Part shown: positions 16,536-61,896 of the stretch, piece after piece | Layout of the letters: each line of letters opens with the position of its first letter | Position numbering within the stretch: the stretch's first letter is position 1 | NCBI GenBank assembly: GCA_016840465.1 | Contig: JAEOSH010000006.1 | Location: 2,886 to 66,885, forward strand | Origin: Candidatus Baldrarchaeum yapensis | Lineage (GTDB): Archaea > Asgardarchaeota > Baldrarchaeia > Baldrarchaeales > Baldrarchaeaceae | Direction of reading: 5' to 3' | DNA length: 64,000 bases | Notes under the pieces: generated by a model | What the model saw: only the letters and a program-made list of their open reading frames with translations | Told to the model about the DNA's origin: nothing | The model's database searches: none | Position numbers and translations under genes: made by a program

Positions 16536-17804
16536 ATGAAGATTTCTCTGCTCGAAAGAGGGAGGCAAGTGGTACTTGATCCAATAAAGACGTGTCAGGT
16601 CGTGGAGCAGAAGCTTAATAACCTGAAGATGAGGGTTAGGACACGTAGGGAAGCGGACCTTTTAGAGGCTATTCGGTTCACTCGCTCAATGAACGACGTG
16701 AGGAGGGTTATAGAGAGCGATACAAGCATAAGTAAGAGGTTCCAAGAGTACGTTCTGCCAGTCGAGCAGGTACTCTTTAAAAGGATAACGGCGGACCCTG
16801 TAAACCCGCTACCTCGAAACGTTCCGCACGTTCGATTGATTGAGAATGTGGAGGAAATACCAGTTATAGGATGCGATACCAGCGAGATAAGACCTTCTGC
16901 ACATTATCTTCCTTTATTTATGCTAATAAACGTTGGAGTATTTGCAATGGGAGCAGAAGAGGGAGAATATTTCTCAGAGAGTGATCCTCACTTTTATACG
17001 TGGGAAGAGCTGACGGCACTGCATCCTCGCAGACTGAGGACTACCCTTAGAATAGACAGTCGGCGCATAGAAGCCCAATGTGAAACTATACTATCGGTGG
17101 TGGACAGAATAAGGGAGTCTGGGAACAGCAAGAGCATCATAGTGTTACTCGATGAAACACTATCCTTAGGCTATCTCGTTGGAAGATCGGCAGAAACTAG
17201 GGAGGAAACGGTAACAGCATTACTTGAAATGATGGGAGAGTTGAAGAAAAAGAATTGCATTCCCGTGGGCGTCTTTTATACAATGAGTGCTGCGCTGACG
17301 GTATCCCTCATCCGGGGAGTTATGTGTAGGAACAAGCCCTCGTGTAGCGTATGCATAGAAGGCGCCCGTTCAGGAGGTAATATTAAAGACCTACCGTGTG
17401 AAAAGTACATGATGCGCGACGTGAAACTCGTGGACTTGCTACTCGATCCGGGATGTAGAACCTTCTGCTTTGAAGTAAAAAATGTGATAACAAGAGCCTT
17501 CTCTTATACCGTGCTTGCCTTCTACCTAAAAGTGTGGAAAAATGACGTACTGAGAGTGGAAATTCCGCAATGGGCATCTGATAAAGTTAATGAGATAGCG
17601 TCCGTAGTTTACTTGCAGTCGATAATGGGCGCAGGATATCCGTACGTGCTCGAGAGGGCTCATGAATACGCTGTTATAAGGTCAGGGGAGAGAGACTGGT
17701 TCATTTCTATGATCTCGCGCGTCCTTCGTGACATCCTCCACATCGACCTTCGGATGAGCCGCAAGGAGATAATGAAAAAGATGCTCGGTGGAGGAGTTGT
17801 ATGA
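16536..17804 (+). CDS. nurA: NurA-like 5'-3' nuclease (DSB end resection)
   Basis: 422 aa with 'IGCDTSEI' as a candidate catalytic Asp motif and a C-terminal 'GYPYVLERAHEYA' (Y…H motif). It is first in an operon with herA, mre11 and rad50, overlapping the next ORF by 4 nt. Confidence 0.6.
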   Translation: MKISLLERGRQVVLDPIKTCQVVEQKLNNLKMRVRTRREADLLEAIRFTRSMNDVRRVIESDTSISKRFQEYVLPVEQVLFKRITADPVNPLPRNVPHVRLIENVEEIPVIGCDTSEIRPSAHYLPLFMLINVGVFAMGAEEGEYFSESDPHFYTWEELTALHPRRLRTTLRIDSRRIEAQCETILSVVDRIRESGNSKSIIVLLDETLSLGYLVGRSAETREETVTALLEMMGELKKKNCIPVGVFYTMSAALTVSLIRGVMCRNKPSCSVCIEGARSGGNIKDLPCEKYMMRDVKLVDLLLDPGCRTFCFEVKNVITRAFSYTVLAFYLKVWKNDVLRVEIPQWASDKVNEIASVVYLQSIMGAGYPYVLERAHEYAVIRSGERDWFISMISRVLRDILHIDLRMSRKEIMKKMLGGGVV

Positions 17805-18457
17805 GCATTTTTGACATGTTAAGAGCCAAGTACTCCAAGCCGGAAATGGCATTCGGGGAGGTAATAGAATCTTCAACAGTGAAATTCGATGTCTGCGCAT
17901 ATGATCATGAGCATACGCCGCAACACGGCGCATTTGTTCTTGTAAATTGTGACCACATACTGGTCATGGGTGTCGTGATACACTCCGAGATGCGTGCGGC
18001 TCCCGGCCTTCCCCGAATCCCTCAGAGACTCAGAATGACCCGTGATGAACTGAGAAGACGGTATCCTGATCTCAGGGACAATATTCTTGACATTTATACG
18101 GCGGTTGTCGTGGGATATTGTTCACGATCCGGCGTCGTACAAAGTCTTCCTCCCGAGAAGCCCCGCATCCACGACCTCGCCTTCATTTTAGATAAGGATC
18201 ACATAATAGAATTTCTAAACCCACACGGCGAGTGCATTGAAATGAACTATCTCCCCCTCCTAACCGTGCCCGTTGCTGCACCCGAAGTTCCCTTCGTCAT
18301 AGAACGTCACCTCAGATTTCTTGCCGAAATCTTAGATCAAAGCTTCCGATCGGAACTATTTAGGGCGCTCTGTACATCGGTTAATGAACATTTTAAAGGT
18401 GATGCGGCAGCTATGTTGCTAAAAATAGGAAGGAAAACCCTATTGGAGGGGGTATAA
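17801..18457 (+). CDS. uncharacterised 218-aa protein inside the nurA–herA–mre11–rad50 operon
   Basis: Its start overlaps the nurA stop (ATGA) and its stop overlaps the herA start (TAATG). There are no recognisable catalytic motifs, and the N-terminus is beta-rich ('EVIESSTVKFDVCAYD…GAFVLVNCDHILVMGVVIH'). Confidence 0.5.
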   Translation: MSIFDMLRAKYSKPEMAFGEVIESSTVKFDVCAYDHEHTPQHGAFVLVNCDHILVMGVVIHSEMRAAPGLPRIPQRLRMTRDELRRRYPDLRDNILDIYTAVVVGYCSRSGVVQSLPPEKPRIHDLAFILDKDHIIEFLNPHGECIEMNYLPLLTVPVAAPEVPFVIERHLRFLAEILDQSFRSELFRALCTSVNEHFKGDAAAMLLKIGRKTLLEGV

Positions 18458-20223
18458 TGAAATTAGAGGAAGAAAAGGACCCCACATTCGCATTCGTCGT
18501 ACAAGGCTCCTTAGATAAGGGAGTTATCGCGCAGCTAAGACGCGGATATCTAAGTGAGGATGTCCAATGTTCTTCTCTTACCACGATCAAGGGACGCAAC
18601 TTTCTCTTCCTAGGGCTCATCTCAAATATCGAGGTTTCTCGAAAGAGCGTCGTAGATGAAACTGTTAGGCATGAAGGTATCGATAAAAGCGCCGATGAGG
18701 TGGAAAGAGAAGCCGTATTGCACGGGTTGATAAACACAGGTGAGGGTCGCCCAGAAATCAGAATAATACCAATAGCTGTGGCGAGGGAAATCGATGGACG
18801 AGTATGTGTGGAGGGCGCGGATACGATACCATACTACATGGCAGAGGTTAAGGTTCCCGATGAGAGCGAAATAAAGGCGTTCTACACCCCGCAAAGGGGT
18901 GAAGGATTCGTAATAGGATATCCCAAGAGCCCAATAGCAAGCCAACAGATATCATCCGGTGTGCTCATGGATCTTGAGGTGCTGGTTCGTGGGACCTTCG
19001 GAATATTCGGAAAAAGTGGGACAGGTAAAACTTTCTTGGGAAACTATCTCGCGTCTGGAATTGTACTATGGAACAAAAAGAATCTCTTCTCCAAGAAGGT
19101 AAAACTCCTAATATTTGACATGCACTCGGAATATGGAACCCAACTTTTCAGCTCCAGGGGAGATACTTACGGTCCAGGAGTTGCAAAAGCATTTCCCGAG
19201 GAGTTCCTAGTATTTTCCCCGGATCACCAATTTGCAAAGGAGCATTCTCTCGAACCCTTGCAGATAAATGCCGGGAATATAACAATAGAAGATCTGGCAG
19301 CAACAGCTGAAGCCTTAGGATTATCAGAAGCATATCTGAGCCACTTGGAAACGTTCAGGCGGATAGCAGAGGATATATTGGATAAATACCGGAGAGAAGC
19401 AAGTAACAGGGGGATTACCAACTGGTTCCAGTTCATAACATCACTCGACGACGAACTTGGTCCTTCATTAACGAATCCACTAGAAGAGAGACTGAGAAGC
19501 ATATCACCAGGTGCAAAATTCGCCTATACCAGCGGAAGGAGCAGGCTTCGGAGATTGAAGAGATACGAGTTCATAAACTGGTTCGGAACGGGAGCAGACT
19601 CAGTAGACACAATAATATCCGAGTTGCTTGATGGAAAACGCAGCGTTGTAATATCGTTTGGAAGATACGGGGATGATAGAACTGCATACATGTTCATAGC
19701 AAACATAGTTGCGCGCAGATTATGGAGAGAATGCGTCGATAGAATAATGAGCGGAAGAGAGCTCCACTACAGGGTTGTAATTTTTATAGAGGAGGCGCAC
19801 AAGTTCCTAGGACCGGATGTCTACTACATGAGCCCGTTCGGCGATATTGCTAGGGAATTGAGAAAACGCGGCGTTATTCTCTGCGTTATCGATCAAACTC
19901 CATCGCAGATATGTGATGACGTTCGTGGAATGTTATGGAACAAATTTGTGATGTGTCTCGAGAACGAAAAGGACATAGAGGCCGCATCTATAGGATTACC
20001 CTTCCCACATCTCTTTAAACCGGTAATCCAGCGCCTACAGCGGCAGGAAGTGCTCGTATTTGGCGAGGCAATAAACGTCCCGGCTGTTGTTAAGGTTCCC
20101 GAATATAAGGAGAGAATTAAGGAAATGAGAGCCCAGTATCTTGAAATAAAGGCAAAGGAAGCGGAAGAAGAAAAGGTGCGGGAAAAAGCATTCGAAGAAC
20201 TCACGGGGCTACCGGTGGGATGA
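18457..20223 (+). CDS. herA: HerA-family hexameric DNA helicase/translocase
   Basis: 588 aa with Walker A 'FGIFGKSGTGKTFL', Walker B 'VVIFIEEAHKF' and a FtsK/HerA-type ATPase core. It lies immediately upstream of mre11. Confidence 0.85.
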   Translation: MKLEEEKDPTFAFVVQGSLDKGVIAQLRRGYLSEDVQCSSLTTIKGRNFLFLGLISNIEVSRKSVVDETVRHEGIDKSADEVEREAVLHGLINTGEGRPEIRIIPIAVAREIDGRVCVEGADTIPYYMAEVKVPDESEIKAFYTPQRGEGFVIGYPKSPIASQQISSGVLMDLEVLVRGTFGIFGKSGTGKTFLGNYLASGIVLWNKKNLFSKKVKLLIFDMHSEYGTQLFSSRGDTYGPGVAKAFPEEFLVFSPDHQFAKEHSLEPLQINAGNITIEDLAATAEALGLSEAYLSHLETFRRIAEDILDKYRREASNRGITNWFQFITSLDDELGPSLTNPLEERLRSISPGAKFAYTSGRSRLRRLKRYEFINWFGTGADSVDTIISELLDGKRSVVISFGRYGDDRTAYMFIANIVARRLWRECVDRIMSGRELHYRVVIFIEEAHKFLGPDVYYMSPFGDIARELRKRGVILCVIDQTPSQICDDVRGMLWNKFVMCLENEKDIEAASIGLPFPHLFKPVIQRLQRQEVLVFGEAINVPAVVKVPEYKERIKEMRAQYLEIKAKEAEEEKVREKAFEELTGLPVG

Positions 20224-20227
20224 GTTC

Positions 20228-21457
20228 ATGGGGTTAAAGATGGTACATACCGGAGATATACATCTGGGAGCCGTAATACGTGGAATGACGTCCGGAACTG
20301 AGGTTTATAAGCGTCGAATAATGGATTTTCTCGAAAACCTGAAAAGAATCGCGGAGTTTTCCGTAAAAAATGAATGCGACTTTTTGTTGATCTCCGGGGA
20401 TATATTCCACTCTCTGCACCCCAGCGCATTCATCCTCGACGAATTCGCGAAAATTCTGAGATTTGTTTCGAATAAAGGCGTAAAGGTCGTTGCAATTCCT
20501 GGAAATCACGACATGCCAAAGACCGCAGGCGTACCGTCCTATCTTGATGCAATATTTGACGCAGGCGTACCCAACTTCTACTACTTCTCACGCGCCGGAA
20601 CGATAACTTTGAGCGGAAGAGATCCCACACGCACGGTAAAATTCATTTGCATACCATATCTTCCGCCGCAAATTGAAAGACAAAAGATGGAGGAAGCATT
20701 AGAAAGATTTGTCAAAAGAGAGGCATCTGACAGAGAAAACTCCGATTACATAGTTGTGTTATCGCACATTTTGGTACATGGTGCAATTCTAGACGCCTAC
20801 GGCAGAAGAATGAAGGAAATGGGAGATGTAGAGTTTTCCACCTCCGCCCTTCTCACGAGTGAAGTAAGCTACGTGGCCCTTGGACATGTGCATCAACACC
20901 AGGAAGTCGCAAAGAAGGTTGTATACTGCGGATCGATAGAAAGAGTCGATTTCGGTGAGGAAGAGGGAGATAAGGGTTTCTATCTAGTAGAGGAAAGGTG
21001 CGGGGATCTTGAGTACGAGTTCATAAAGCTACAAACACGGCCACTAATCACGATTCCTGGGAGAAGATCCGGAATAGGTGGTGAGTATTTGAATCTTGCG
21101 GTCAGCGATCAACCATCCCGCGCGTTGCTTGAGTTTCTGAAAAATGCAAGAATAGAATCCGAATCGATAGTCAGAATAAGGTACCTGATACGGAGTGATC
21201 AAGTGCTTAACCTCAAACCCATAGAGGAGTTCCTAGAAGAGGTAAAGAGAGTCATGCATTATATACTTGACCCGACATATATCACAATTATTAGCCATAA
21301 TGAAGTATATGAAGACATTGCGGCGAAATCCCTGAGAGAATATTTCATAGAATATATTGACGCCCAAAATTTGCCACCAGAGATAAATAAAGAGAAATTG
21401 AAGGAGTTAGGTCTTGAATACATACAAAGGAAGATAGAAGAGGAGGAATACGGATGA
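20228..21457 (+). CDS. mre11: Mre11 DNA double-strand break repair nuclease
   Basis: Calcineurin-like phosphoesterase motifs 'HTGDIHLG', 'LISGDIFH', 'IPGNHD' and 'ALGHVHQ'. It overlaps rad50 by 4 nt. Confidence 0.9.
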   Translation: MGLKMVHTGDIHLGAVIRGMTSGTEVYKRRIMDFLENLKRIAEFSVKNECDFLLISGDIFHSLHPSAFILDEFAKILRFVSNKGVKVVAIPGNHDMPKTAGVPSYLDAIFDAGVPNFYYFSRAGTITLSGRDPTRTVKFICIPYLPPQIERQKMEEALERFVKREASDRENSDYIVVLSHILVHGAILDAYGRRMKEMGDVEFSTSALLTSEVSYVALGHVHQHQEVAKKVVYCGSIERVDFGEEEGDKGFYLVEERCGDLEYEFIKLQTRPLITIPGRRSGIGGEYLNLAVSDQPSRALLEFLKNARIESESIVRIRYLIRSDQVLNLKPIEEFLEEVKRVMHYILDPTYITIISHNEVYEDIAAKSLREYFIEYIDAQNLPPEINKEKLKELGLEYIQRKIEEEEYG

Positions 21458-23946
21458 ATAGTTGGGGATTTGTGCCAGAGAAACTCATTGCCGAGAACTT
21501 CATAACTTACGATAGATTAGAACTGGATTTCACAAAACTGGGAAGAAGAGTCGCCGTACACGGTCCCACAGGTGCGGGTAAAACAACAGCATTCGTGGAT
21601 GCCCTTACTTTCGCCTTATTTGGTGCAGCATACGAGAAATCTGGAGCCCAGTTCAGGGAAAAACTTGCAAAGGAGGCCGGAAGACCGGTAAAGGTAGAGT
21701 TGACATTCAGAGTTGGGGGTGAACGGTATAAAGTTATGAGAATGATAGATAGCAACGGTAAGTACATAAGGGTTGAATTAAGGAGATTGGAAGAGGGCGC
21801 AAAGCCAATAACGTCGCTGAGAGAGGTCAATCAGAGGATAGAGAAACTACTGGGCATGAATTATAAAATATTTCTCAACACGGTCGCAGTAAGGCAGGGC
21901 AATGTTGCTGAACTCCTACATGGCCTTACACCCTCGGAGTTCAGGCAAATGCTCCTCTTAGCTTTTGGAATCGATTTCAGAAAGATACAGGATGCAGTTA
22001 AGGATGACTACAGACAGGCAGAAGTCGAATACTCGAAAATAACTTCTAGGATAGAAGACTTGCGGAAAAAAATAAAGGAGAAAGACAAGGTTTTGAGAGA
22101 CCTGAACAACCTGAGAAAGGAACTCACGAAACTAAATGAAGATATCTCAAAAGTAAGAAGCAAACTCCAAGAAGTAGAACAAAAGCTTCAGGCGGTACAT
22201 GAGAAATTATCCTCCGCACGTCAGGAGTATAAACTTATGGAAAAGGAGTATCAGAACCTCCAGGATAAAAGGAGGCACCTCGAAGAAAAAATGTCGGATA
22301 GAGAGAGGTTTATGAGGGAATTAAGCAAGTTATCCGAAATTGAGGAAGAATTGAAATTGCTAAGAGAGTCGATATCAAAACTGCGAAAAGCGACCGGAAT
22401 CCTTGCTACCATTAAGGAGAAGAGAAGAGCTCTGAGCCGATATGAAAGAGAGTTGAGGGAGTTGGAAAGAAAGGAGAAGGAACTAAATGGGCTGAGAAAA
22501 CGAATTGAAGATTTGTCATGTGAAATATCAGCTTTAGAAAGCACGGTTAAAAAGATTGAGGATATCGAAAGGAAAATAGACGAGAAAAAAGAACTAAAGA
22601 ACAAACTTAGTGGAAAGAGGGAATATCTGGAGAGAAATTTAGCTGAAATAAAGGAAATGAAACAAAGATCATCAAACGGGGCAATAAAATGTCCGCTTTG
22701 TCTCTCCGAATTGTCCCCACAGAAAGTTGAGGAGGTCATGAGAAGCATAACTCATACACTCACGGAACTAAGAAACCAATTGGAATCGATAAGCAGAGAA
22801 TTAGAAGAGCTATCTAGAGAGCGCGAAACTGTTAAGAAAGCTGAGGAAAAGCTAAATACGCTGTACAAAATGCTTATGAGATACGAGGGGCAAGCAAAGT
22901 CTCTTAGCGAATTTGTAAAAAAGAAGGTTGATTTGCAGGGCGAAAGGGAAAAATGTGGACAGGAATTAAAGAAAATGGAGGAAGAACTCTCGAAACTTAT
23001 AGAGGGGATATGCTCTTACGATGAGGTCGAACAAAAGCTTGCAGAATTAGAAGCAAAGGAGCGGGCTCTCGAAGAGAAAGTCAGAAAGATAGCGGAAAGC
23101 AGAGGAAGAATATCAGAGTTGGAAAAGGAGATAGAGAGGTTAAAAAACGAGATTAGAGAATTGGAGCCTCTAATTTCAGAAGAAATGCTGAGAAGAAAGA
23201 AGATCGAGTTAGATGAATTAATGAAAATGGAAGATGAGTTAAAAAGGCGCAAAAAGGAAATAGAGTCAGAACTCGAGGGCCTGCAGGACAGAATGATAAA
23301 GGTCAGCGCGGACGTTAAAGCACTCGAAAGTAAGTTGAAAGAAATAAAAGATGCCGAAAATGAAATAAAAAGTCTCGAAATAGAGGAAAGAAAAGCACGA
23401 GAAAAACTCATTATGCTCAAAGTATTAAAGGAGAAGGTATTTCATGATCAAGGATTCCCGATGTTCCTACTAAGTCGCTTCATTACTAGACTTCAGGATT
23501 ACGCGAACTATTACCTCAGTAGCATTCTTCCAAATTATCAGATCCGCCTCAAGAGGGTAAAAGAGGGAAGACAAGAGAAAATAAGAGCAACGGTCATGGA
23601 TATTTCAAGGGGATATGATCGCCCGTTATATACATACTCCGGCGGTGAAACCGCGATCCTGGGATTTGTACTGAGATTAGCACTAGCAAAAACATTACTA
23701 GAGGTAAAAGGTGCTAAATCGCCGAGAATTCTGATTTTAGATGAGGGATTTAGCTCTGCTAGCGAGGAATATCGTGCCCAATTGATGAAGTTATTAGCAA
23801 CGCTATCCCAAGAGTTCGAAAATATTATTGTCATTTCACACGTTCCTGACATAAAGTTCAGCGAAATATTCGATAGAATTCTCGAAGTTCAGAGAGACAG
23901 AAGTGGAAGTCGCATAAGGGACGTCACCACATCGGTGAAATCGTAG
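21454..23946 (+). CDS. rad50: Rad50 ATPase (SMC-like, with zinc-hook)
   Basis: N-terminal Walker A '[10 protein letters not shown]', a long heptad-rich coiled coil with a central 'CPLC' zinc hook (about 22689-22700), and C-terminal signature/Walker B '[11 protein letters not shown]…LILDEGF'. Confidence 0.9.
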
Positions 23947-33300: not shown

Positions 33301-35640
33301 ATGTACATAACCGATAATATTGCCAAATTGGAAGGACTGTTGAGAAAGTGGGGTATTTCCGAGTTAAGGGAGGTACAACGCAAGGCCATAGACATGGGGC
33401 TACTCAGAGGAGAAAGTTTGATTGTATGTGCGCCAAGTGGCAGTGGTAAGACGTTAATCGGAGAGATAGCACTTGCTCTTAATGCAAATGATGGGATGGG
33501 CGTATATTTAGTGCCCTTTAAGGCTCTTGCTGACGAAAAATTTGAGGATTTCAGGAAGAAGTTTGATTGGAAGAAAGTGGGAATAACGACTGGTGATTAT
33601 GACGTAGTTCCTGAAAGTCTTAGAAACTATGACATTTTAGTCACAACATATGAAAGATTCGACAGTATACTCAGAGCGGATCCTCCCTGGTTGCGAGAAA
33701 TAAAGGTCGTAGTTGTCGATGAAATACACATGATCGGGGACAAAAATAGGGGTCCTCGACTTGAAAGTCTCCTTTTCCGCCTCTCCTCGAAATTAAAAGA
33801 ATTTCAGTTAATAGGTTTAAGCGCTACTATTGCGAATCCGGAAGAAATTGCCGAGTGGCTGGGTTGTAAACTTGTAATGAGCAACAAACGCCCAGTTCCT
33901 CTCAAGTATCAGGTAGTTCTCTGTAAAAACAAAAGAAAGGAGATACTTGAATTATCGAGGAGATGTTTGGAGGAGGGAGGGCAGGCGCTTATCTTTGTTC
34001 TAACTAGGAGAGAGGCGGAAGACGTGGCGGTGATGCTGTCCGAAGTCAGTGAGGAATTTCTGAGTACAGATGATAGAAAAACTCTCGAAAATATTGCTAA
34101 AGACTTAGAAAAGGAGGATATGCCATCGATCTCAAAGAGGCTTGCGATGATTTTGCGGCTCGGCGCGGCGTTTCATCATGCCGGTCTTCCTCATAGGGAT
34201 AGATCCTTAGTTGAGAAATTATTTAGGGATAAGGTGCTTAAGCTGTTGTCTTGTACAACAACGTTGAGTGCAGGGGTGAATTTACCCGCTCGGTACGTGA
34301 TACTAAAAGATGTCACTAGAAAGAGAGGAAAGAAGATATCAACAGCGTTAGGGGCCAACGAGTTTCACCAAATATTAGGCAGGGCCGGCCGTCCCGGCTT
34401 TGATGACATAGGGATAGGTGTGGTATTAAGTTCGTCTCATAGGGAATTGCAATACATAAAGAGAAGGTACTTTTCCGGTGATGGGTTGGATCCAGTATAC
34501 GACAATGTTTTAAGTGCCATGATGCACTTTGATGCGCTTACAGAGCAGGTGCTTCTGCGAATTTTCGAGGAAGAACCCACGAGTATAGACTCTCTAGTGC
34601 AGTACTTCTCTGGGACATTCTGGGGTTGGAAAGTCGGCGGTCGCGAGGCGATTTCAAGAATTTTTTACTCAGAAGCAAAGGACGTTCTCAGAGGACTTAA
34701 GGAGATTTGTATGGATGCCCGCACATTGGAAGTTGACATTTTAGAATTCAACGGCATTTCTGTAAAGGCTCGGGTGCAAAGCGAGTCCTCATCGAAATGG
34801 TATAGGGTTCAAATAGATGCAAGCGGTAATGCGCAGTGTTCATGTCCCGATTTCAAGTTTAGGAGGAGAAAAGAAGGAGAACTCTGTAAGCATCTTGCAA
34901 CTCTAGTAAGATACATTGTTGAAGAGGGGATCGGCGACGCAATACCAGTGGTGCTCGATTATATTCGTATTACAAGAAATGTTGAGGTATCTCCGATATC
35001 TTACTTAAGGATCGGGGGCTTCATCTCATCTTCCCGTGATGGAACCCTTCATTGCACGAAGTTCGGAAAAACCACAATACTCCTCTATATAAAGCCAAAA
35101 ACTGCGCTGTTCCTTAGAGGTGGAATTATTCGCGTCGGAGATCCTTTAGAGAAATATCTTATTGAACTAGCCATACATGCTGCTCACTTAGAGGATAACG
35201 AGAAAATCGGGCCGCGCAGAATGAAAAGGTACGTGGATGCACTGCTTATGTGGATAGATGAATATCGAGAATCGGAGATTTGCGATAGTTGTAAAATAGA
35301 TCCGGGAGATTTCCAAATGCTCAGGGATAGAGCAACATGGATGATGCATTCGATCTCCATACTGGCATCACTCTTTAATAGGGGGAACGTTGCAGAGACC
35401 GCAAGAAAACTGGAGGAGAGGTTGAAACACGGCGTCAGGGAGGAGTTATTGCCAATATTAAGAATGAGAGTCGAGGGCCTCGGTAGGGTGAGGGCAAGGA
35501 TACTTTTCAATGCAGGGTTCAAAACCCCGGAGGATCTCAAGAATGCAACCTTAGAGACTCTTACAAGGTTGCCGAGCATAGGCAAGAATCTCGCGAGCAG
35601 AATACTCAGCCGATTGAAGCATAATACCATGGAACATTGA
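33301..35640 (+). CDS. Ski2/Hel308-like superfamily-2 DNA helicase with an embedded SWIM zinc finger and C-terminal HhH
   Basis: Motif I 'CAPSGSGKT', motif II 'DEIHMIGD', motif VI 'QILGRAGRPGFD', the SWIM pattern 'CSCPDFKFRRRKEGELCKH' (CxCx14CxH) and a C-terminal 'LTRLPSIGKNLASRIL' helix-hairpin-helix. Confidence 0.8.
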   Translation: MYITDNIAKLEGLLRKWGISELREVQRKAIDMGLLRGESLIVCAPSGSGKTLIGEIALALNANDGMGVYLVPFKALADEKFEDFRKKFDWKKVGITTGDYDVVPESLRNYDILVTTYERFDSILRADPPWLREIKVVVVDEIHMIGDKNRGPRLESLLFRLSSKLKEFQLIGLSATIANPEEIAEWLGCKLVMSNKRPVPLKYQVVLCKNKRKEILELSRRCLEEGGQALIFVLTRREAEDVAVMLSEVSEEFLSTDDRKTLENIAKDLEKEDMPSISKRLAMILRLGAAFHHAGLPHRDRSLVEKLFRDKVLKLLSCTTTLSAGVNLPARYVILKDVTRKRGKKISTALGANEFHQILGRAGRPGFDDIGIGVVLSSSHRELQYIKRRYFSGDGLDPVYDNVLSAMMHFDALTEQVLLRIFEEEPTSIDSLVQYFSGTFWGWKVGGREAISRIFYSEAKDVLRGLKEICMDARTLEVDILEFNGISVKARVQSESSSKWYRVQIDASGNAQCSCPDFKFRRRKEGELCKHLATLVRYIVEEGIGDAIPVVLDYIRITRNVEVSPISYLRIGGFISSSRDGTLHCTKFGKTTILLYIKPKTALFLRGGIIRVGDPLEKYLIELAIHAAHLEDNEKIGPRRMKRYVDALLMWIDEYRESEICDSCKIDPGDFQMLRDRATWMMHSISILASLFNRGNVAETARKLEERLKHGVREELLPILRMRVEGLGRVRARILFNAGFKTPEDLKNATLETLTRLPSIGKNLASRILSRLKHNTMEH

Positions 35641-35683: not shown

Positions 35684-37195
35684 ATGGCCCAAGAAAGAGA
35701 AATAATGGAAACTCACCTGAATTCTCAGCACCTTTATTTCACGGGATCGGATAGTATTGATGATGTTACGAAGCGATCAATCCGTGCGGTGAGAGTAACA
35801 ATGGACAAGTTAAGAGAGGTTCTTGACAAAATGTTTCATGCAAAATCCATAGCGATAATAGGGGCCTCTCCTCGCCCTGGAAGCGTTGGGAACCTTTTCC
35901 TAAAAAGATTAATGGATTTCGGATATTCAGGAAAACTATTCCCGGTGAATCCCCGATATCAGGAGATATACGGGTTGAAGTGCTATCCCAGCGTAAGGGA
36001 AATACCAGAGGAAGTGGATCTAGCAATAATAACAATACCTGCAAATCTTGTTCTCAGAGCCGTCAAAGAGTGTGCGGAAAAGGGAGTGCCTGGAGTGGTT
36101 ATAGTCAGTGGAGGATTTAAGGAATTGGGAGAAGAGGGAAGAAGACTGGAGGAAGAATTGACGAGGATAGCGAAAGAAACGGGGATCAGAATAATCGGCC
36201 CCAATTGCATGGGGATATACTGCCCGTCGTCTCAGATAACATTTCACGATAAGTTTCCAAAAGAAAGCGGGGATATAGGTTTCATTTCGCATAGCGGAGG
36301 CCTGTGTGAGCTATTTGTTCTGATGATGGGGGAAAGAGGCCTCGCGATGAGTAAGGTCATAAGTTGCGGAAACGAGTGTGATTTGAAGTTTGTAGATTTT
36401 CTAGAATATCTCGAGGACGACGAAGAGACACGTGTAATAACCGGATATGTGGAGCAAATACGAGAGGGAAGACGGTTTCTCGAGGTTGCGAAGAGAGTGA
36501 CTAAAAAGAAGCCAGTGATAATATGGAAGGCCGGAAGGGGATCCGCGGGTCAGCGGGCCATCTTCTCTCACACTGGTGCACTCGGCGGATCCGATAAAAT
36601 CTATAATGCCGTATTCAAACAGGTTGGTGTTCTGAGAGTCAATTGTCTAGAGGAGATTATCGACTTAGCTATGACATTCCATTGCTTATCCCCCAGAAAA
36701 GTGAGAAATGTTGCAGTGATTACTGGACCTGGAGGTTTGGGAGTTGCAATGGTCGATGCCTTCGAGTCCGCAGGCCTTCAGGTGCCTGAATTTTCAAAGG
36801 AAACGCAAGATCGCCTTAAGAAAATAATGCCACCCGTAGCGGGAGTAAAGAACCCTGCGGATCTGACTCTTGCGATTTTCGAGGATATAGATTTGACACG
36901 AAAGGCCATTGAAATAATCAAAGAAGATGACAGGATTGACGCAATTGCGGTCGGAATAGCGGGCGCGATAGCATACCTATCTCCTGACGCGGTCAACAGA
37001 ATACTAGGTGGAGTCTTAGAGGCATCAAAGGAGTCCGAAAAACCCGTTGTTGCCGTATGGCCTCATGTTGGCCGGCTATGGAGTTACGTTAGAGAATTCG
37101 TCAGATCAGGGGTTCCTGTATACACTTTCCCTGAAGACGCAGCAAGAGGGCTTAGAGCGCTTGACTGGTACTATACCCGTACATCTGCAAAATAG
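35684..37195 (+). CDS. NDP-forming acyl-CoA synthetase alpha subunit (acetate–CoA ligase [ADP-forming]-like, CoA-binding plus ligase-CoA domains)
   Basis: 'SIAIIGASPRPGSVGN', 'GVPGVVIVSGGF', 'IGPNCMGI' and the phosphohistidine-region 'ISHSGG'. The probable start is an internal Met near 35800. Confidence 0.75.
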   Translation: MAQEREIMETHLNSQHLYFTGSDSIDDVTKRSIRAVRVTMDKLREVLDKMFHAKSIAIIGASPRPGSVGNLFLKRLMDFGYSGKLFPVNPRYQEIYGLKCYPSVREIPEEVDLAIITIPANLVLRAVKECAEKGVPGVVIVSGGFKELGEEGRRLEEELTRIAKETGIRIIGPNCMGIYCPSSQITFHDKFPKESGDIGFISHSGGLCELFVLMMGERGLAMSKVISCGNECDLKFVDFLEYLEDDEETRVITGYVEQIREGRRFLEVAKRVTKKKPVIIWKAGRGSAGQRAIFSHTGALGGSDKIYNAVFKQVGVLRVNCLEEIIDLAMTFHCLSPRKVRNVAVITGPGGLGVAMVDAFESAGLQVPEFSKETQDRLKKIMPPVAGVKNPADLTLAIFEDIDLTRKAIEIIKEDDRIDAIAVGIAGAIAYLSPDAVNRILGGVLEASKESEKPVVAVWPHVGRLWSYVREFVRSGVPVYTFPEDAARGLRALDWYYTRTSAK

Positions 37196-37240: not shown

Positions 37241-37284
37241 ATTTCATAAACTCATAAGTTTATAAACTTATGAGTTTATGAAAT
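37241..37284. promoter_or_regulatory. 44-bp perfect palindrome centred on a TTTATAAA TATA-like box, about 15 nt upstream of the ATPase-nuclease gene
   Basis: Read directly: ATTTCATAAACTCATAAGTTTA|TAAACTTATGAGTTTATGAAAT. The central 8 nt are TTTATAAA. Confidence 0.5.
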
Positions 37285-37298
37285 CTTGGTGTTAAACG

Positions 37299-38885
37299 TT
37301 GTCCTACCTGTTACCAGTGACGGGCGAGGACTTCTTCGATCGGGAGCGAGAACTGGAGATCTTGGAAAGTGGGAAGAATATAGCACTTATAGGACCTAGA
37401 AAGTCGGGAAAGACATCTATAATATTTGAATTTGTACGAAGACATCCCGAGAAGAGAATTGCTTACGTGTATGTTCTTTTCCAGGAAGACATCAATAGCT
37501 TAATTTCAAGAATGGCAAGATCGGTGCTAATGGTAATACTAAGAGTAAGGGATGAAGTGCCGGCGCTTGATGATCTGATATCCGCAGCTATGGACAAGGT
37601 GCCGGAAATATCGGCTCTCCTATATAATCTTATGCGACATATCAGGAAGCAAAGACATGAGGAGGCTCTCGAGGCATTAGCTAATGTTTGCGAGAAAACC
37701 GGAACCGTAATCGCCATAGATGAGTTTCAGAACGTTTTTCAATTAGAGAAGTTCGTAGATATTCTGCGCATGATCTTACTCAAGTATAGAAAGGTACAAT
37801 GGATAATAACTGGATCCAGCATAGGAATCATGAAGGAACTGCTCATGGAACCATCATCTCCCCTTTTTGGGCACTTTGAGGTCGTATGGGTCGGCGCATT
37901 TGATATGCCCACGGCTTCAGAGTTTCTGGAGTTCTTACTAAGGCGTACCCAATTTTCGATGCCACCCGATGTGAAACAATACATTCTTGCAATTTCAGGA
38001 GGCTTCCCATTCTACATCTCAATCATTGTCTCAAAGTCCGTAGAGAAAGCCAAAACCAAACGAAAAGGGAAAATAGTCCCTTGGAGCGATGTCATGGAAA
38101 CCTTAGAGGAAGAATTGTGCCATCCGGAGGGCACTCTGTACAGGCATTTTATAGAAACTCTAGAGAAGGGTATGAAACGAAGAAATGTGGGGAAATATAT
38201 AGACGTACTTTACTGGATCGCAAAAGGAGCGTCAGATTTAACGACCATATCCAAAAACACAGGATTCAGCCCGCAGCACTGTCTGAAAATACTCAGATTT
38301 CTCGAAAAAAGCATGTTAATAGAGAGAGTGGGGGATAGTTACTTTCTGAAGGACCCTCTCATGGACATATGGCTCAAGAGAATATATGAGTTGATGAGCC
38401 GAGAATACTCCCCGGTAAGGGACTTTACACAAATAAAACTGATGTTAAAAGAGTATTTGGACGAATTGAGAAAGCAGATTTCGATAGGTGCGGAGGCAAG
38501 GATCAGAGAATTGCTTAGAGCATTCGATGGAAGAAGGAAGATACCAATAGCTGGAGAAATTGTAAGGACCCCAACATTTCAAATGGTGTCGAGGATTACA
38601 TGGAATGGTAATGAAATAGATGTTCTCGCAATCGGGTCCGAGGTGTGGGTTTTAGAAGTAAAAACCGGGTCTGTGAAATATGAAGATCTGAAAACCTTCG
38701 CTAGGAAAATAGATGACGCGATAAAATCCGGAGTTATTAAGCGTGTTGACAGAAGAATACTCGCATGCCTCGGTGATATTAAAGAGAATCTGGTAACAGA
38801 AGCAGATAAGCTCGGTATCAAGATTTGGAGAAAAGAGGAGATTAACAAAGCCATGCGGATTTTCGGTTATTATCCATTCCTGTAA
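37299..38885 (+). CDS. Arch-ATPase (Orc/Cdc6-related AAA+) fused to a C-terminal DUF234-type PD-(D/E)xK nuclease-like domain
   Basis: Walker A 'LIGPRKSGKTSI', Walker B 'VIAIDEFQ', and a C-terminal 'NEIDVLAIGSEVWVLEVKTG' (D…ExK). It has a non-ATG (TTG/GTG) start and is paralogous to the 60475-61896 gene. Confidence 0.75.
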   Translation: MSYLLPVTGEDFFDRERELEILESGKNIALIGPRKSGKTSIIFEFVRRHPEKRIAYVYVLFQEDINSLISRMARSVLMVILRVRDEVPALDDLISAAMDKVPEISALLYNLMRHIRKQRHEEALEALANVCEKTGTVIAIDEFQNVFQLEKFVDILRMILLKYRKVQWIITGSSIGIMKELLMEPSSPLFGHFEVVWVGAFDMPTASEFLEFLLRRTQFSMPPDVKQYILAISGGFPFYISIIVSKSVEKAKTKRKGKIVPWSDVMETLEEELCHPEGTLYRHFIETLEKGMKRRNVGKYIDVLYWIAKGASDLTTISKNTGFSPQHCLKILRFLEKSMLIERVGDSYFLKDPLMDIWLKRIYELMSREYSPVRDFTQIKLMLKEYLDELRKQISIGAEARIRELLRAFDGRRKIPIAGEIVRTPTFQMVSRITWNGNEIDVLAIGSEVWVLEVKTGSVKYEDLKTFARKIDDAIKSGVIKRVDRRILACLGDIKENLVTEADKLGIKIWRKEEINKAMRIFGYYPFL

Positions 38886-42906: not shown

Positions 42907-43113
42907 TGATCCTTCAAATTCAAAATTATCGCGAAGCCCCCTGCACAACTTAAAGCAAAATGTTCATCTGCTAATAAAATGTAAATGTATTAGAATCTGT
43001 ATTGCTAACCCTCAACTTCTAACAAGAATCGACTTGGTGAGGTTGTTGATTTCCGATAATGTAAAAAGCAGAATCGAAACATCAAGAACGAAACAAAAAG
43101 AGAATTTTCCGGT

Positions 43114-43942
43114 ATGGAATTTCCCATTAAAACTCAAAGGGAGATCATATGTCAACTTTCTGAACTCATGGAAGAAGACGATTCCATCTACACTTCGGAT
43201 GAATATGCAAGGAGAAGGGGCTTCGAAGCAGCAGTTGTCCCACCATCAATAATATTGTCCCTGCTGTCGTTGAAATTAAGGGACGCATTTTTAAAATACA
43301 TGCAAAAACTGATGGGATGGGGGCGAAGGGATTAATACATGTAGGATCAAACGTTGAGTTCCACAAACCACTCATCGCGGACAAGGAGTATAAGGTACTT
43401 ATGAAACTCAAGAACTTAAACGAAAAATTTTGAAAGAAGGGAACTTACCTGCTAATGTCTCTCGAAATATCAATTTTCGATGAAAAAGAAGAGATCATGT
43501 TGCGTGATGACCATAAGTTCTTCATTAAAATAGAGTGATGGGGAAAGCCTATGGAAAGGGGATCTTATAAGGAAATAAGGGTCGGAACATCAATTCCCCC
43601 GCTTAAAGTTACAATCGACAGGGATAAGTTGCTCAGGTACTGTGAAGTGACAAGAGAGGTAAACCCTATACATTTTGACGAAAATGCAGCAAAAATGCTC
43701 GGATTTGATGATATAGTTGTACAGGGAATTTTCACAATCGGCTTTTCCCGAAGATGCTTACTAGGTGGCTAGGAAGTCCGACATGTCTGAGAAGGATTGA
43801 AGTTCGCTTCACAGCACCGGTATATGCGGGAGATACCATCATCTTTCATGGTATTGTCAAAAATATTCTGCAAGAGAAAGGAAAGACCCTGTTAGAATGT
43901 GAAATATGGGCGGAAAAGGAGAGCGGCAAGAGGGTCATTTGA
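43114..43942 (+). pseudogene. degraded MaoC-like (R-specific enoyl-CoA hydratase, hot-dog fold) gene pair, broken by multiple frameshifts and stops
   Basis: Four ORF fragments in different frames. One is 'SIYTSDEYARRRGFEAAVVPPS' with 'HVGSNVEFHKPLIADKEYK' (N-terminal hot-dog). The other is 'EVNPIHFDENAAKMLGFDDIVVQGIFTIGF' with 'RFTAPVYAGDTIIFHG' (catalytic MaoC hot-dog). Confidence 0.5.
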
Positions 43943-44072
43943 GGGCGACGCGGAAGTGCTACTGGAAAAGCCTTGATGTAAGACCTATTGTATGCGTGAA
44001 AGTAATCCTCCAATGTACAAATAGTGCGAGAAATCTTGCATCACTTAGGGAATCCCTTAAAACTAAAAGTTC

Positions 44073-60123: not shown

Positions 60124-60415
60124 CTCCTCTCAAGAAGTCAATTATTTTTGAGCATATGCTCAATTTAAAATCTCCACCCAGATGTCGCTGGTATTCAAAC
60201 TCCTGAGTCGCACATTACAAAGAATGTGTAATGCTCGGACAATCATGCACCAACAGATGTGACTCGCAATAATGAGAGCAACATGCTTAAGAATAGAATT
60301 AAAAATCGTTTTTTAAGCAATTTGACGTAAAAATTGTACGCTAAGACCGATTAAAAGGTCTGATGATTTTTGACGCAATCCGCCGCAAACAACGCATCAT
60401 TAAGAAAATGCATTT

Positions 60416-60463
60416 ATCTACTTATGAGTAGTCTACTATAAAGTAGACTACTCATAAGTAGAT
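60416..60463. promoter_or_regulatory. 48-bp inverted repeat (22-nt perfect arms, 4-nt spacer) centred on TATAAA, 11 nt upstream of the second ATPase-nuclease gene
   Basis: Read directly: ATCTACTTATGAGTAGTCTACT-ATAA-AGTAGACTACTCATAAGTAGAT. The centre reads CTATAAAG, and 'AAGGGGA' lies between the repeat and the ATG. Confidence 0.5.
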
Positions 60464-60474
60464 AAGGGGATGAC

Positions 60475-61896
60475 ATGCAGAATCACGCTTTTATCAATAG
60501 AGAGAAGGAACTCTCCGTTCTGCATGAGCGGTTTAAAACATCCCGTGCTGAGCTCATAGTGGTGTACGGAAGAAGACGCGTGGGGAAGACCACAATACTA
60601 AAGGAGTTCCTGAAAAGAGTAGGTGGAGTGTATTTCCTCGGCAGACAAGAATCGGAATTAGATCAGTTGCGCAGGTTTTCCTCGATACTTGCAAGATACT
60701 TCGGAGACAAGTTCTTAGAAAAGAGTCCATTTACGAACTGGGATGGACTTTTTGAGTACCTTGCCAGCAAGGCTGAGAATCAACGAGTAGTGGTGATATT
60801 CGATGAGTTTCCGTATATGGTTTCTAGTTGCCCTAAACTGCCATCAATATTGCAGGACTTCTGGGATAACAGATTATCATATACGAAGATCTTCATAGTA
60901 CTTTGCGGCTCCAGCATCGGAATGATGGAGGAGATAATCGGTGGTAAAAGCCCACTTTACGGTAGAAGAACCGGACAACTACGTATAGGTCCCCTTAAAT
61001 TCTCTGATGTCCGGAAGTTTTTTCCTAAGTACACATTTAGAGACCAAATAACTGTATATGCCGTTTTGGGCGGGACTCCCGCATATCTCGTCCAATTTGA
61101 TACTCAAAAGAATATCATGTCAAACATCGAGGAGAACGTACTAAGGACAGATGCATTCCTTTATCAGGACCCTCTCTTCGTGCTCAGGGAAGAAATAGAA
61201 GAACCGCGGTTCTATTTCTCAATACTTAAAGCAATAGCCTATGGCGCAACGCGTCTGTCAGACATAATTAATCTCACAGGCCTAGGGAAGGGATTGGTTT
61301 CAAAATATATTGCAACACTAATAGACCTAGATCTAATTAAGCGTGAAGTTCCTGTCACAGAGAAACACCCCGAAAAGTCCAGAAAGGGAATTTACAAAAT
61401 AAAAGACCACTTTTTCAGATTCTGGTTCCGTTTCATATATCCTCACATGGAAGAAATTGAACTTGGCGACACAAAGTTCATAATCGACACTATAGAGCGC
61501 AACCTCCAAGAGTTCGTAGCTCCTGTGTTTGAAGAAATCTGCATGGAGGCCCTTAAGATTCTTAACTTAAAAAATAAACTGCCAACTCGTTTTTTACAGT
61601 TCGGAAAATGGTGGAATAGAGGAGAAGAGATAGACATAGTTGCATTAGATCCTCGCACAAAATGCATGCTGGTCGCAGAATGTAAATGGAGCACAAAACC
61701 AGTTTCTGCATCAGAACTCGGTAGGCTTGTTGAAAAAGCAGAACTTGTGGAGTGGATGAACGACACTAGGAAAACCTTCTATGCATACTTTTCCTCGGGC
61801 GGCTTTACAAAATCAGCATATAGTGTTGCACAAGAATACAACATCTTTACATTTGATCTAGAAAAACTGGAGAAAATTTTCAGTAATAAAGTTTAG
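60475..61896 (+). CDS. Arch-ATPase (AAA+) fused to a C-terminal DUF234-type PD-(D/E)xK nuclease-like domain (paralog of 37299-38885)
   Basis: Walker A 'VVYGRRRVGKTTIL', Walker B 'VVIFDEFPY', and a C-terminal 'EEIDIVALDPRTKCMLVAECKWS' (D…ExK). Confidence 0.75.
   Translation: MQNHAFINREKELSVLHERFKTSRAELIVVYGRRRVGKTTILKEFLKRVGGVYFLGRQESELDQLRRFSSILARYFGDKFLEKSPFTNWDGLFEYLASKAENQRVVVIFDEFPYMVSSCPKLPSILQDFWDNRLSYTKIFIVLCGSSIGMMEEIIGGKSPLYGRRTGQLRIGPLKFSDVRKFFPKYTFRDQITVYAVLGGTPAYLVQFDTQKNIMSNIEENVLRTDAFLYQDPLFVLREEIEEPRFYFSILKAIAYGATRLSDIINLTGLGKGLVSKYIATLIDLDLIKREVPVTEKHPEKSRKGIYKIKDHFFRFWFRFIYPHMEEIELGDTKFIIDTIERNLQEFVAPVFEEICMEALKILNLKNKLPTRFLQFGKWWNRGEEIDIVALDPRTKCMLVAECKWSTKPVSASELGRLVEKAELVEWMNDTRKTFYAYFSSGGFTKSAYSVAQEYNIFTFDLEKLEKIFSNKV

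Follow-up and report, generated by a model that had tools for sequence, protein, structure and literature searches.

A 64,000-nucleotide stretch of Candidatus Baldrarchaeum yapensis (positions 2,886 to 66,885 of contig JAEOSH010000006.1, here called the window) contains only two long perfect inverted repeats, which lie 14 and 10 nt before its only two ATPase_2 genes. The first repeat, P1 (37241-37284), precedes the gene A1 (37299-38885, forward strand), and the second, P2 (60414-60465, with arms at 60414-60437 and 60442-60465), precedes the gene A2 (60475-61896, forward strand); both repeats and their component units are given without a strand. A phmmer search over all open reading frames (ORFs) of the window returned A1 and A2 as the only two such genes, and the chance of both palindromes being placed in this way is roughly estimated at 5e-6. 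An earlier, sequence-only reading of the window had drawn attention to P1 and to a second element at 60.4 kb. The latter is real, and is located in a 351-bp divergent intergenic region, but that reading did not stress that it stands directly upstream of the window's only A1 paralogue.

The palindrome described in that reading was recovered in full. P1, ATTTCATAAACTCATAAGTTTA|TAAACTTATGAGTTTATGAAAT, is a perfect 44-bp palindrome in the repeat search, with loop-free arms of 22 nt each (37241-37262 and 37263-37284) that are 100% complementary. It is nevertheless not a single 44-bp site, but two abutting tandem 16-bp dyads of the form TAAAC-N6-GTTTA with 6-nt symmetric flanks. From left to right, the flank ATTTCA is followed by unit 1 (TAAAC-TCATAA-GTTTA, 37247-37262), whose half-sites recur in Anaerolineae homologues, then by unit 2 (TAAAC-TTATGA-GTTTA, 37263-37278) and the flank TGAAAT. 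The half-site centres are 11 bp apart within each unit. The dyad axis is the octamer noted previously, TTTATAAA at 37259-37266, which forms the junction between the units and is a candidate TATA box. When the 22-mer arm was searched against the window with up to three mismatches, only its own two arms matched, and none of 100 dinucleotide-preserving shuffles did so; as single-stranded DNA, P1 folds at -18 kcal/mol (z = -10.4). The shuffles and the window-wide palindrome scores rule out a chance origin. An assembly artefact was also rejected, as unique coding sequence borders P1 on either side and the architecture recurs in homologues that were assembled independently. The Logan contig SRR14699971_231500 (L001), which carries the same gene, starts inside P1, with its position 1 corresponding to window position 37255; this assembly broke at the perfect palindrome. 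No further perfect P1 or P2 units were found elsewhere in the window, hence the sites are local.

P1 lies in the 103-nt spacer between A1 and the gene at 35684-37195, whose matches to Succ_CoA_lig, CoA_binding and Ligase_CoA_2 agree with its previous description as an ADP-forming acyl-CoA synthetase. The upstream stop codon is 46 nt from P1, the end of P1 is 14 nt from the TTG start codon of A1 at 37299, and its centre is approximately 36 nt from that codon. The open frame of A1 begins at 37296, and TTG 37299 was taken as the start because no other start preserves the PVTGE...FDRE motif at the N terminus, a motif that does not vary among homologues. A Shine-Dalgarno-like GGTG (37288-37291, forward strand) is found 7 nt before this codon, and GGTG or GGAGG-type sequences occur just 5' of the predicted starts of many window genes. 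The stop codon of A1 is 3 nt from the end of a convergent thiolase gene.

The 528-residue A1 product combines an AAA+ ATPase_2 module, a winged helix (approximately residues 297-350) and a PD-(D/E)xK nuclease domain (approximately residues 410-528), and is the presumed binder of P1. Its assignment as an AAA-ATPase/PD-(D/E)xK protein in the earlier reading holds: the Pfam match to PF01637 (ATPase_2) scores 59.8 bits against a gathering cut-off of 33.2; the Walker motifs are intact (GPRKSGKT and DEFQ, invariant in the A1 alignment), as is the nuclease motif (D441...E453-V-K455, with E439, E453 and K455 invariant in the alignment); and the C-terminal domain is modelled as a beta-sheet with helices with a pLDDT (predicted local distance difference test) score above 90. 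The AlphaFold model otherwise comprises the AAA+ module and three helices at residues 297-337, followed by a low-confidence wing. The best Foldseek matches are the Walker-type ATPase PAB2304 (2qen) and Orc1/Cdc6 bound to origin DNA (2qby); the Can2 and Cdn1 nucleases come lower in the list. These two and a separate profile match to CARF_PDDEXK give weak supporting similarity for the nuclease domain. PF03008 (DUF234) has no match in A1, which is therefore not a member of that family at the sequence level, and a weak, partial match to the PADLOC family PDC-S27 (2.9e-5, residues 29-192) means that A1 is not a member of this family by a full-length test.

A2 is only 23% identical to A1. It encodes 473 residues with ATPase_2 (117.9 bits), winged-helix and DUF234 PD-(D/E)xK (PF03008, 107 bits) domains, and carries the motifs GRRRVGKT, DEF and D387...E402-C-K404. 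It matches PDC-S27 over its full length (2.2e-58, residues 5-451 of 473), and an identical protein is present in a Candidatus Baldrarchaeia metagenome-assembled genome record. Hence, relative to the PF01637 ATPase_2/PF03008 DUF234 "archaeal ATPases" (COG1672; 2fna, SSO1545; 2qen, PAB2304), A2 is a full-length member, whereas A1 is divergent and related through its ATPase_2 part. SSO1545 and PAB2304 appear in the literature as structural-genomics entries. The combination of an ATPase with a PD-(D/E)xK nuclease has been described for the DUF234/COG1672 family (PMC3424549, PMC12988326), which was treated in surveys of the PD-(D/E)xK fold (PMC3424549, PMC1913061). PDC-S27 systems number 3,503 in Archaea and 4,562 in Bacteria, placing them among the ten most prevalent detected (PMC12988326), and the same source regards PDC-S27 as a candidate defence family that so far lacks both an assigned function and a defence test.

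P2 follows the same plan as P1 with different dimensions. Its 24-nt arms and 4-nt loop, evident in both the repeat search and folding, enclose three 14-bp dyads, CTACT-N4-AGTAG, that recur with a 15-bp period (60418-60431, 60433-60446 and 60448-60461, spanning 60418-60461); this array is the putative operator of A2. Its middle unit holds TATAAA (60437-60442), centred approximately 36 nt before the ATG of A2, and 10 nt separate P2 from that start. P1 and P2 also have a 10-mer core in common, ACTCATAAGT/ACTTATGAGT. The consensus ACTYATRAGT matches the window four times, against 0.28 expected, and all four matches (37250-37259, 37266-37275, 60420-60429 and 60450-60459) are inside P1 or P2. P1 thus fits the TAAAC-N6-GTTTA frame of the A1 type and, at the same time, the ACT-N4-AGT core of the A2 type. 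The shared core may reflect cross-regulation between the paralogues. Both elements are symmetric as wholes (44-52 bp), with spacers that mirror one another across units, though the single units are imperfect palindromes. Such global symmetry is absent from many homologues, and it may have arisen through homogenisation of the palindrome or may reflect a complex that is truly two-fold.

Comparable arrays precede the relatives of A1. These proteins are 27-35% identical to A1, with 45 cluster representatives at E <=1e-30 and 321 at <=1e-10, and their loci were collected from species-representative genomes and by exact look-up. Nearly all have an array in the same place, consisting of two or three dyads at the core promoter; the homologues with phased arrays are 27-32% identical to A1. 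Among the 16 direct-repeat lags tried (9 to 24), the best was exactly 16 in 16 of 18 upstream regions. The unit sequences differ between clades. Three Anaerolineae have two copies of TAAACAC-NN-GTGTTTA directly after TTGACA-17-TATAAT; their half-sites and TTTATAAA junction are those of P1. The ANME-3/Methanosarcinaceae members have three copies of TAAGCA-N4-TGCTTA, ending 4 nt before the ATG and meeting at TTATAA and TTATAT junctions. Three copies of TATTC-N6-GAATA stand right after the -10 box in L101, L103 and L104, this being clear in L103 and L104; two copies of TATGA-N6-TCATA lie immediately upstream of the ribosome-binding site in L013 and L100, right after TATAAT in the latter; and a 32-bp perfect palindrome precedes the start of a Rhodocyclaceae relative (L018). 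In the bacterial relatives, the first unit adjoins the -10 hexamer or overlaps it, hence the array covers +1.

The A2 family gave a set of 80 metagenomic loci, of which 63-70 had enough upstream sequence depending on the test (66 scored for palindromes, 70 for lags), and which were compared alongside loci of Thermococcus and Pyrococcus, a homologue of 59% identity and three copies from haloarchaeal plasmids. A palindrome score of at least 8 was reached within 75 nt upstream at 56% of these loci, whereas shuffled sequences reached it in 9.7% of cases and the remaining ORFs of these loci in 7.2%; a score of at least 10 was reached at 32%, compared with 0.6% and 2.9% respectively (Mann-Whitney p ~1e-17 for the upstream enrichment). 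The lag was exactly 15 in 13 of the 14 strong direct repeats, with no such preference in distal or shuffled controls. Where two proteins were 30-60% identical, their genes shared a 10-mer at -70 to -8 in 181 of 1768 pairs, against 8 of 1768 at -170 to -108, an excess for which the AT-richer proximal regions account in part.

The A2-family motifs also track protein clades. The closest relatives of A2 have CTACT, ATACT or TTACT-N4-AGTAx, and two loci (L022 and L030) have CTACT-N4-AGTAG, identical to the P2 unit and with the same period; a gut-bacterial clade has TTATCATAA repeats, and others TAATC...GATTA. The Thermococcales have a BRE/TATA-like cgaaaatcTTAAATA with two units directly downstream of it, the last of which stops 6 nt short of the ATG. 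This arrangement of a TATA-like motif and then two units, ending 1-13 nt before the ATG, extends across the Thermococcales, the 59%-identical homologue and the haloarchaeal copies. In three haloarchaeal genera, TTTAAG-type motifs precede a conserved repeat, which has a lag of 15 bp and extends as far as the ATG. The plasmid copies of Natronomonas, Haloferax and Natrialba (L109, L110 and L111) have a near-identical block approximately 40 nt upstream of the ATG, AAGTCATTATCgnAGTAATCATTAtcnAGaGT-ATG, beyond which their sequences differ. The family occurs on 166 PLSDB plasmid records.

The position of these arrays relative to the promoter bears on the role of the central octamer. TTTATAAA is the GTTTA|TAAAC unit junction, which arises from the operator design, as the identical junction in Anaerolineae homologues shows; there it is downstream of a sigma-70 -10 box, and hence cannot be a TATA box. 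In archaeal A2-family homologues, however, a TATA-like motif is centred approximately 36-40 nt before the ATG, and the central TATA-like octamers of P1 and P2 are a similar distance, approximately 36 nt, from their start codons, which favours TTTATAAA as the TATA box. On balance, we regard it as the candidate TATA box of A1, with odds only modestly better than even. Clear TATA boxes upstream of other window genes were too few to calibrate the typical distance from TATA box to start. Archaeal TATA boxes are positioned near -26/-27, so if TTTATAAA serves this function, transcription is predicted to start at approximately 37287-37290, giving a leader of approximately 10 nt that begins at GGTG. 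The sequence-only reading had described the spacing as that expected of a leaderless promoter. The spacing itself, approximately 36 nt, is as reported, but it is about 10 nt too long for leaderless transcription from a TATA box at -26/-27. In the Thermococcales and haloarchaea, the array takes up the interval from the TATA-like motif to the start codon, a position from which archaeal repressors block recruitment of RNA polymerase, and an array over the -10/+1 region in the bacterial members occupies a classic repressor position.

Whether a neighbouring gene could supply the DNA-binding protein was assessed from the flanking ORFs. No conserved neighbour or partner regulator gene was found, as no flanking ORF family occurred in more than four of approximately 80 loci, and no small helix-turn-helix (HTH) gene stands beside A1 or A2. 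Gene neighbourhoods differ completely between loci, with housekeeping genes here, and toxin-antitoxin, methyltransferase and conjugation genes elsewhere. Since the arrays extend across phyla without a conserved neighbour, the winged helix of the gene's own product is the only DNA-binding candidate that moves with them. This domain has weak matches to the HTH proteins CasR, Csa3, MsvR and Sso10a, and precomputed Pfam matches to HTH_5, IclR and MarR in homologues. The unit size and the 11-bp half-site spacing would suit an HTH dimer. Furthermore, the motif TG[FY]SPQ, at the presumed start of the recognition helix, is found only in A1 and the Anaerolineae proteins, as are the TAAAC/GTTTA half-sites, even though A1 is overall just as similar to clades that have other half-sites as it is to the Anaerolineae proteins (32% identity), or more so.

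P1 is therefore very probably a conserved protein-binding regulatory element of A1, and we consider it most likely an autoregulatory operator array bound by the winged helix of A1 itself. The earlier reading had proposed a repressor operator, or a site bound by the encoded protein. Strong comparative evidence upholds its view of P1 as a promoter-proximal operator of the ATPase-nuclease gene that may be bound by the product of that gene; its view of one 44-bp site gives way to two 16-bp dyads. Under autoregulation, dimers of the encoded protein would bind each dyad through the winged helix, with the half-site centres 11 bp, or approximately one helical turn, apart. Neighbouring dimers would then interact along the phased array, possibly assisted by AAA+ oligomerisation, and their occupancy would block access of TBP and TFB, or of RNA polymerase. 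The gene would thereby repress itself, so that the set point of a potentially harmful nuclease stays low, and P2 would do likewise for A2 through its three 14-bp dyads with a 15-bp period. The array would be a portable module that moves with its gene between Bacteria and Archaea, with the TA-rich unit junction TTTATAAA probably doubling as a TATA box in this archaeon.

Several observations weigh against autoregulation. The correspondence between TG[FY]SPQ and the half-sites comes from two clades only, and in the A2 family, a covariation test that set HTH-segment identity against shared upstream 8-mers gave no HTH-specific signal, by a crude metric that is confounded by AT-rich promoter elements. 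The model of A1 is only moderate (mean pLDDT 75, predicted template modelling score 0.40), and the wing is poorly modelled. The identical 10-mer core of P1 and P2 could instead mean a common third-party factor or cross-regulation, and the global symmetry over 44-52 bp exceeds the needs of binding to individual units, such that a simple operator function leaves it unaccounted for. Our literature search found no description of the regulation, or of any cis-element, of PF01637, DUF234 or PDC-S27 genes, which feature only in fold surveys, structural-genomics mentions and defence censuses.

These points leave room for other explanations. Instead of a regulatory site, or in addition to one, the array could be the working, loading or assembly site of the Orc1/Cdc6-like AAA+ module, which would oligomerise on the phased repeats, or a copy of the motif or cruciform targeted by the nuclease, with occupancy of the promoter as a by-product. 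Orc1/Cdc6 on origin DNA ranks among the best fold matches, and Orc1/Cdc6 is known to bind dyad elements adjoining its own gene; strict 15/16-bp phasing over two, three or more units would suit a helical oligomer, perfect symmetry over 44-52 bp could extrude a cruciform, and the nuclease motif is intact. In addition, when viral targets were sought in IMG/VR, a P1-type double unit had no match and a P2-type double unit had a single match, on a 5.5-kb viral contig (IMGVR_UViG_3300042868_010780; L099 2717-2815) with at least six tandem CTACT-N4-AGTAG units at a 15-bp period. However, one viral match is about that expected by chance for 20 specified bases; A1 and A2 have no Pfam Cdc6/Orc match, their resemblance to Orc1/Cdc6 being at the level of the fold alone; and many arrays are not globally palindromic, hence a cruciform is not conserved. 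Moreover, in Bacteria and Archaea alike, the array always lies with the core promoter on one side and the start codon on the other, a placement that is predicted by regulation, but which neither loading nor a cleavage target needs. We therefore consider a working site unlikely. An operator for a separate host factor that recognises ACTYATRAGT, co-regulating both ATPase-nuclease genes, would explain the 10-mer that is common to P1 and P2 and that is confined to them in the window. Yet this ACT-N4-AGT core is general among the closest A2 relatives in other organisms, and clade-specific arrays accompany the gene across phyla and both domains of life with no conserved neighbour, meaning such a factor would need to be re-recruited after every transfer. 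With no small HTH gene adjoining either gene, a host factor appears rather improbable.

Two further proposals concern P1 as a structure or a boundary rather than an operator. As it begins 46 nt past the upstream stop codon, folds far better than shuffled sequences (z = -10), and is flagged by a lenient terminator scan with the tail CTTGGTGTTA, P1 could be an RNA or DNA hairpin that terminates or stabilises the 3' end of the acyl-CoA synthetase transcript, or that structures the 5' untranslated region of A1. The earlier reading thought a terminator unlikely, noting the missing T-tract, and both judgements stand: just four stem pairs are G-C, leaving an AT-rich stem; no oligo-T run is found 3' of P1, although the lenient scan still classes CTTGGTGTTA as T-rich; and there is neither an Rfam match nor a conserved hairpin. 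The homologues instead keep phased short dyads, often as three units or direct repeats, in a position that is fixed to the downstream start whatever precedes it, while P2 follows no gene, and the GGTG and start codon of A1 fall outside the hairpin. Hence this explanation has very little chance of being correct. The least probable of these possibilities is that P1 marks the end, or a site of recombination, of a mobile element carrying the ATPase gene. It would accord with the occurrence of A1 and A2 as single-gene insertions among housekeeping genes, with the frequency of the family on plasmids (166 records), with the toxin-antitoxin modules, methyltransferase and TraG genes near homologues, and with L002, in which homologous ORFs flank the gene. 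Against this, no second copy of an arm or unit is present 3' of A1 or A2, nor elsewhere in the 64 kb; 18 of 20 homologous loci have the arm at the promoter and nowhere else; and the 3 nt between the A1 stop codon and the end of the convergent thiolase gene leave no room for a right end. A terminal inverted repeat, or a dispersed repeat of the REP or MITE type, was rejected on the same two grounds, namely the lack of further copies in 64 kb and the promoter-only distribution in 18 of 20 loci.

A variant that we hold to be improbable, though of wider consequence, is that the array forms an assembly platform which holds an Orc/STAND-like protein with AAA+, winged-helix and nuclease parts in an inactive state, such that sensor and effector would be one polypeptide. 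Were this so, competing DNA, such as invader repeats or DNA of altered topology, would titrate the protein off its promoter, causing derepression and an ATP-dependent licensing of the nuclease. One of the most abundant of the uncharacterised archaeal families listed as defence candidates would then work through a self-operator set point that is portable between Bacteria and Archaea, and the ACTCATAAGT core that A1 and A2 have in common would cross-wire the two paralogues.

The autoregulatory reading has consequences of its own. Clade-specific and strictly phased arrays at their own promoters imply that these proteins are sequence-specific DNA binders, and the arrays supply the specific DNA for tests, providing an experimental handle on a large uncharacterised family. 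They also illustrate how a single cis-regulatory module can outlast transfer between the two domains, as the TA...TA boundaries of the units give TATA-like junctions in an archaeal host, whereas the array of bacterial members covers the -10/+1 region.

The settings of these genes are varied. A1 and A2 have as neighbours in the window genes for acyl-CoA synthetase, thiolase and prolyl-tRNA synthetase, and a NurA-HerA-Mre11-Rad50 operon. These housekeeping surroundings are unlike the often mobile or defence-type settings of their relatives, which include VapBC, a HicA-type toxin gene, an N6/N4 methyltransferase and TraG/TrwB (L101 3729-4318; L103 1188-1591 and 5080-5593; L100 1-1234). In L002, the homologous ORFs that flank the gene are at 1684-2862 and 5755-6930. 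The copies on the viral contig IMGVR_UViG_3300042868_010780 are of CCTACTGACTAGTAG, are at least six in number, and form an intergenic, iteron-like tandem series with the unit and 15-bp period of P2; no ATPase_2 gene was found on this contig.

Elsewhere in the window, the operon at 16536-23946 (forward strand) encodes NurA, a 218-residue ORF, HerA, and Mre11-like and Rad50-like proteins; the coiled-coil region of Rad50 is responsible for a strong purine skew at 22-24 kb (GC skew 0.27, AT skew 0.33). A Hel308-type DEAD/DEAH helicase, with archaeal helicase domain 4 and HHH matches and a SWIM zinc-finger match at residues 501-537, is encoded at 33301-35640 (forward strand). The approximately 1.2 kb at 42907-44072 lack a long ORF. 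The gene calls of the corresponding Logan contig include only two 73-residue ORFs there (43114-43335 and 43551-43772), one of which matches a MaoC dehydratase, and the stretch may represent a split or decayed gene. A CobN/Mg-chelatase large-subunit gene (4062-7826, reverse strand) and a ChlI/ChlD-like AAA+-VWA gene (7920-9920, forward strand) are divergent, with a common intergenic region of 93 bp.

An autoregulatory operator is an ordinary kind of element, and three sets of characterised systems resemble the one proposed here, although none includes A1 or A2. The C-protein operators, or C-boxes, of restriction-modification systems resemble P1, as interpreted here, in having two adjacent dyads immediately 5' of the regulator's own gene that overlap its promoter, in setting the level of a potentially lethal nuclease, and in travelling with a mobile defence-type gene. 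However, whereas the C protein is a separate small HTH protein, here the winged helix is fused inside the ATPase-nuclease itself. The arrays also differ from C-boxes in their 14-16 bp units, strict 15/16-bp period and frequent third unit, with no sequence relationship between the two, and the module is found in both Archaea and Bacteria. Similarly, the BrxR/CapW-type regulators, which combine a winged HTH with a WYL domain, are palindrome-binding repressors located upstream of defence operons. As outlined in PMC12255303, RptR is a defence-island repressor that binds a palindrome upstream of a defence operon. These systems, like the presumed A1 system, place a winged helix or HTH on inverted repeats at a promoter and keep anti-phage genes repressed until triggered. 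Yet BrxR, CapW and RptR are dedicated regulators beside their effectors, whereas no separate regulator is conserved here, and regulator and effector are apparently one polypeptide.

Among characterised proteins, Orc1/Cdc6 with its origin boxes (2qby) comes closest in fold to the AAA+ and winged-helix part of A1. In contrast to Orc1/Cdc6, A1 and A2 have an extra nuclease domain, do not match the Pfam Cdc6/Orc family, belong to a family that is also bacterial, and occur as several paralogues per genome, each with its own array. Nor do the arrays flank an unwinding element, as the boxes of Orc1/Cdc6 do, but instead stand between promoter and start codon. Hence the C-protein/C-box and BrxR/CapW/RptR systems are the closest mechanistic analogues of this arrangement, and Orc1/Cdc6 the closest characterised structural one, while a family-wide dyad array that is portable between the two domains of life appears not to have been described previously.

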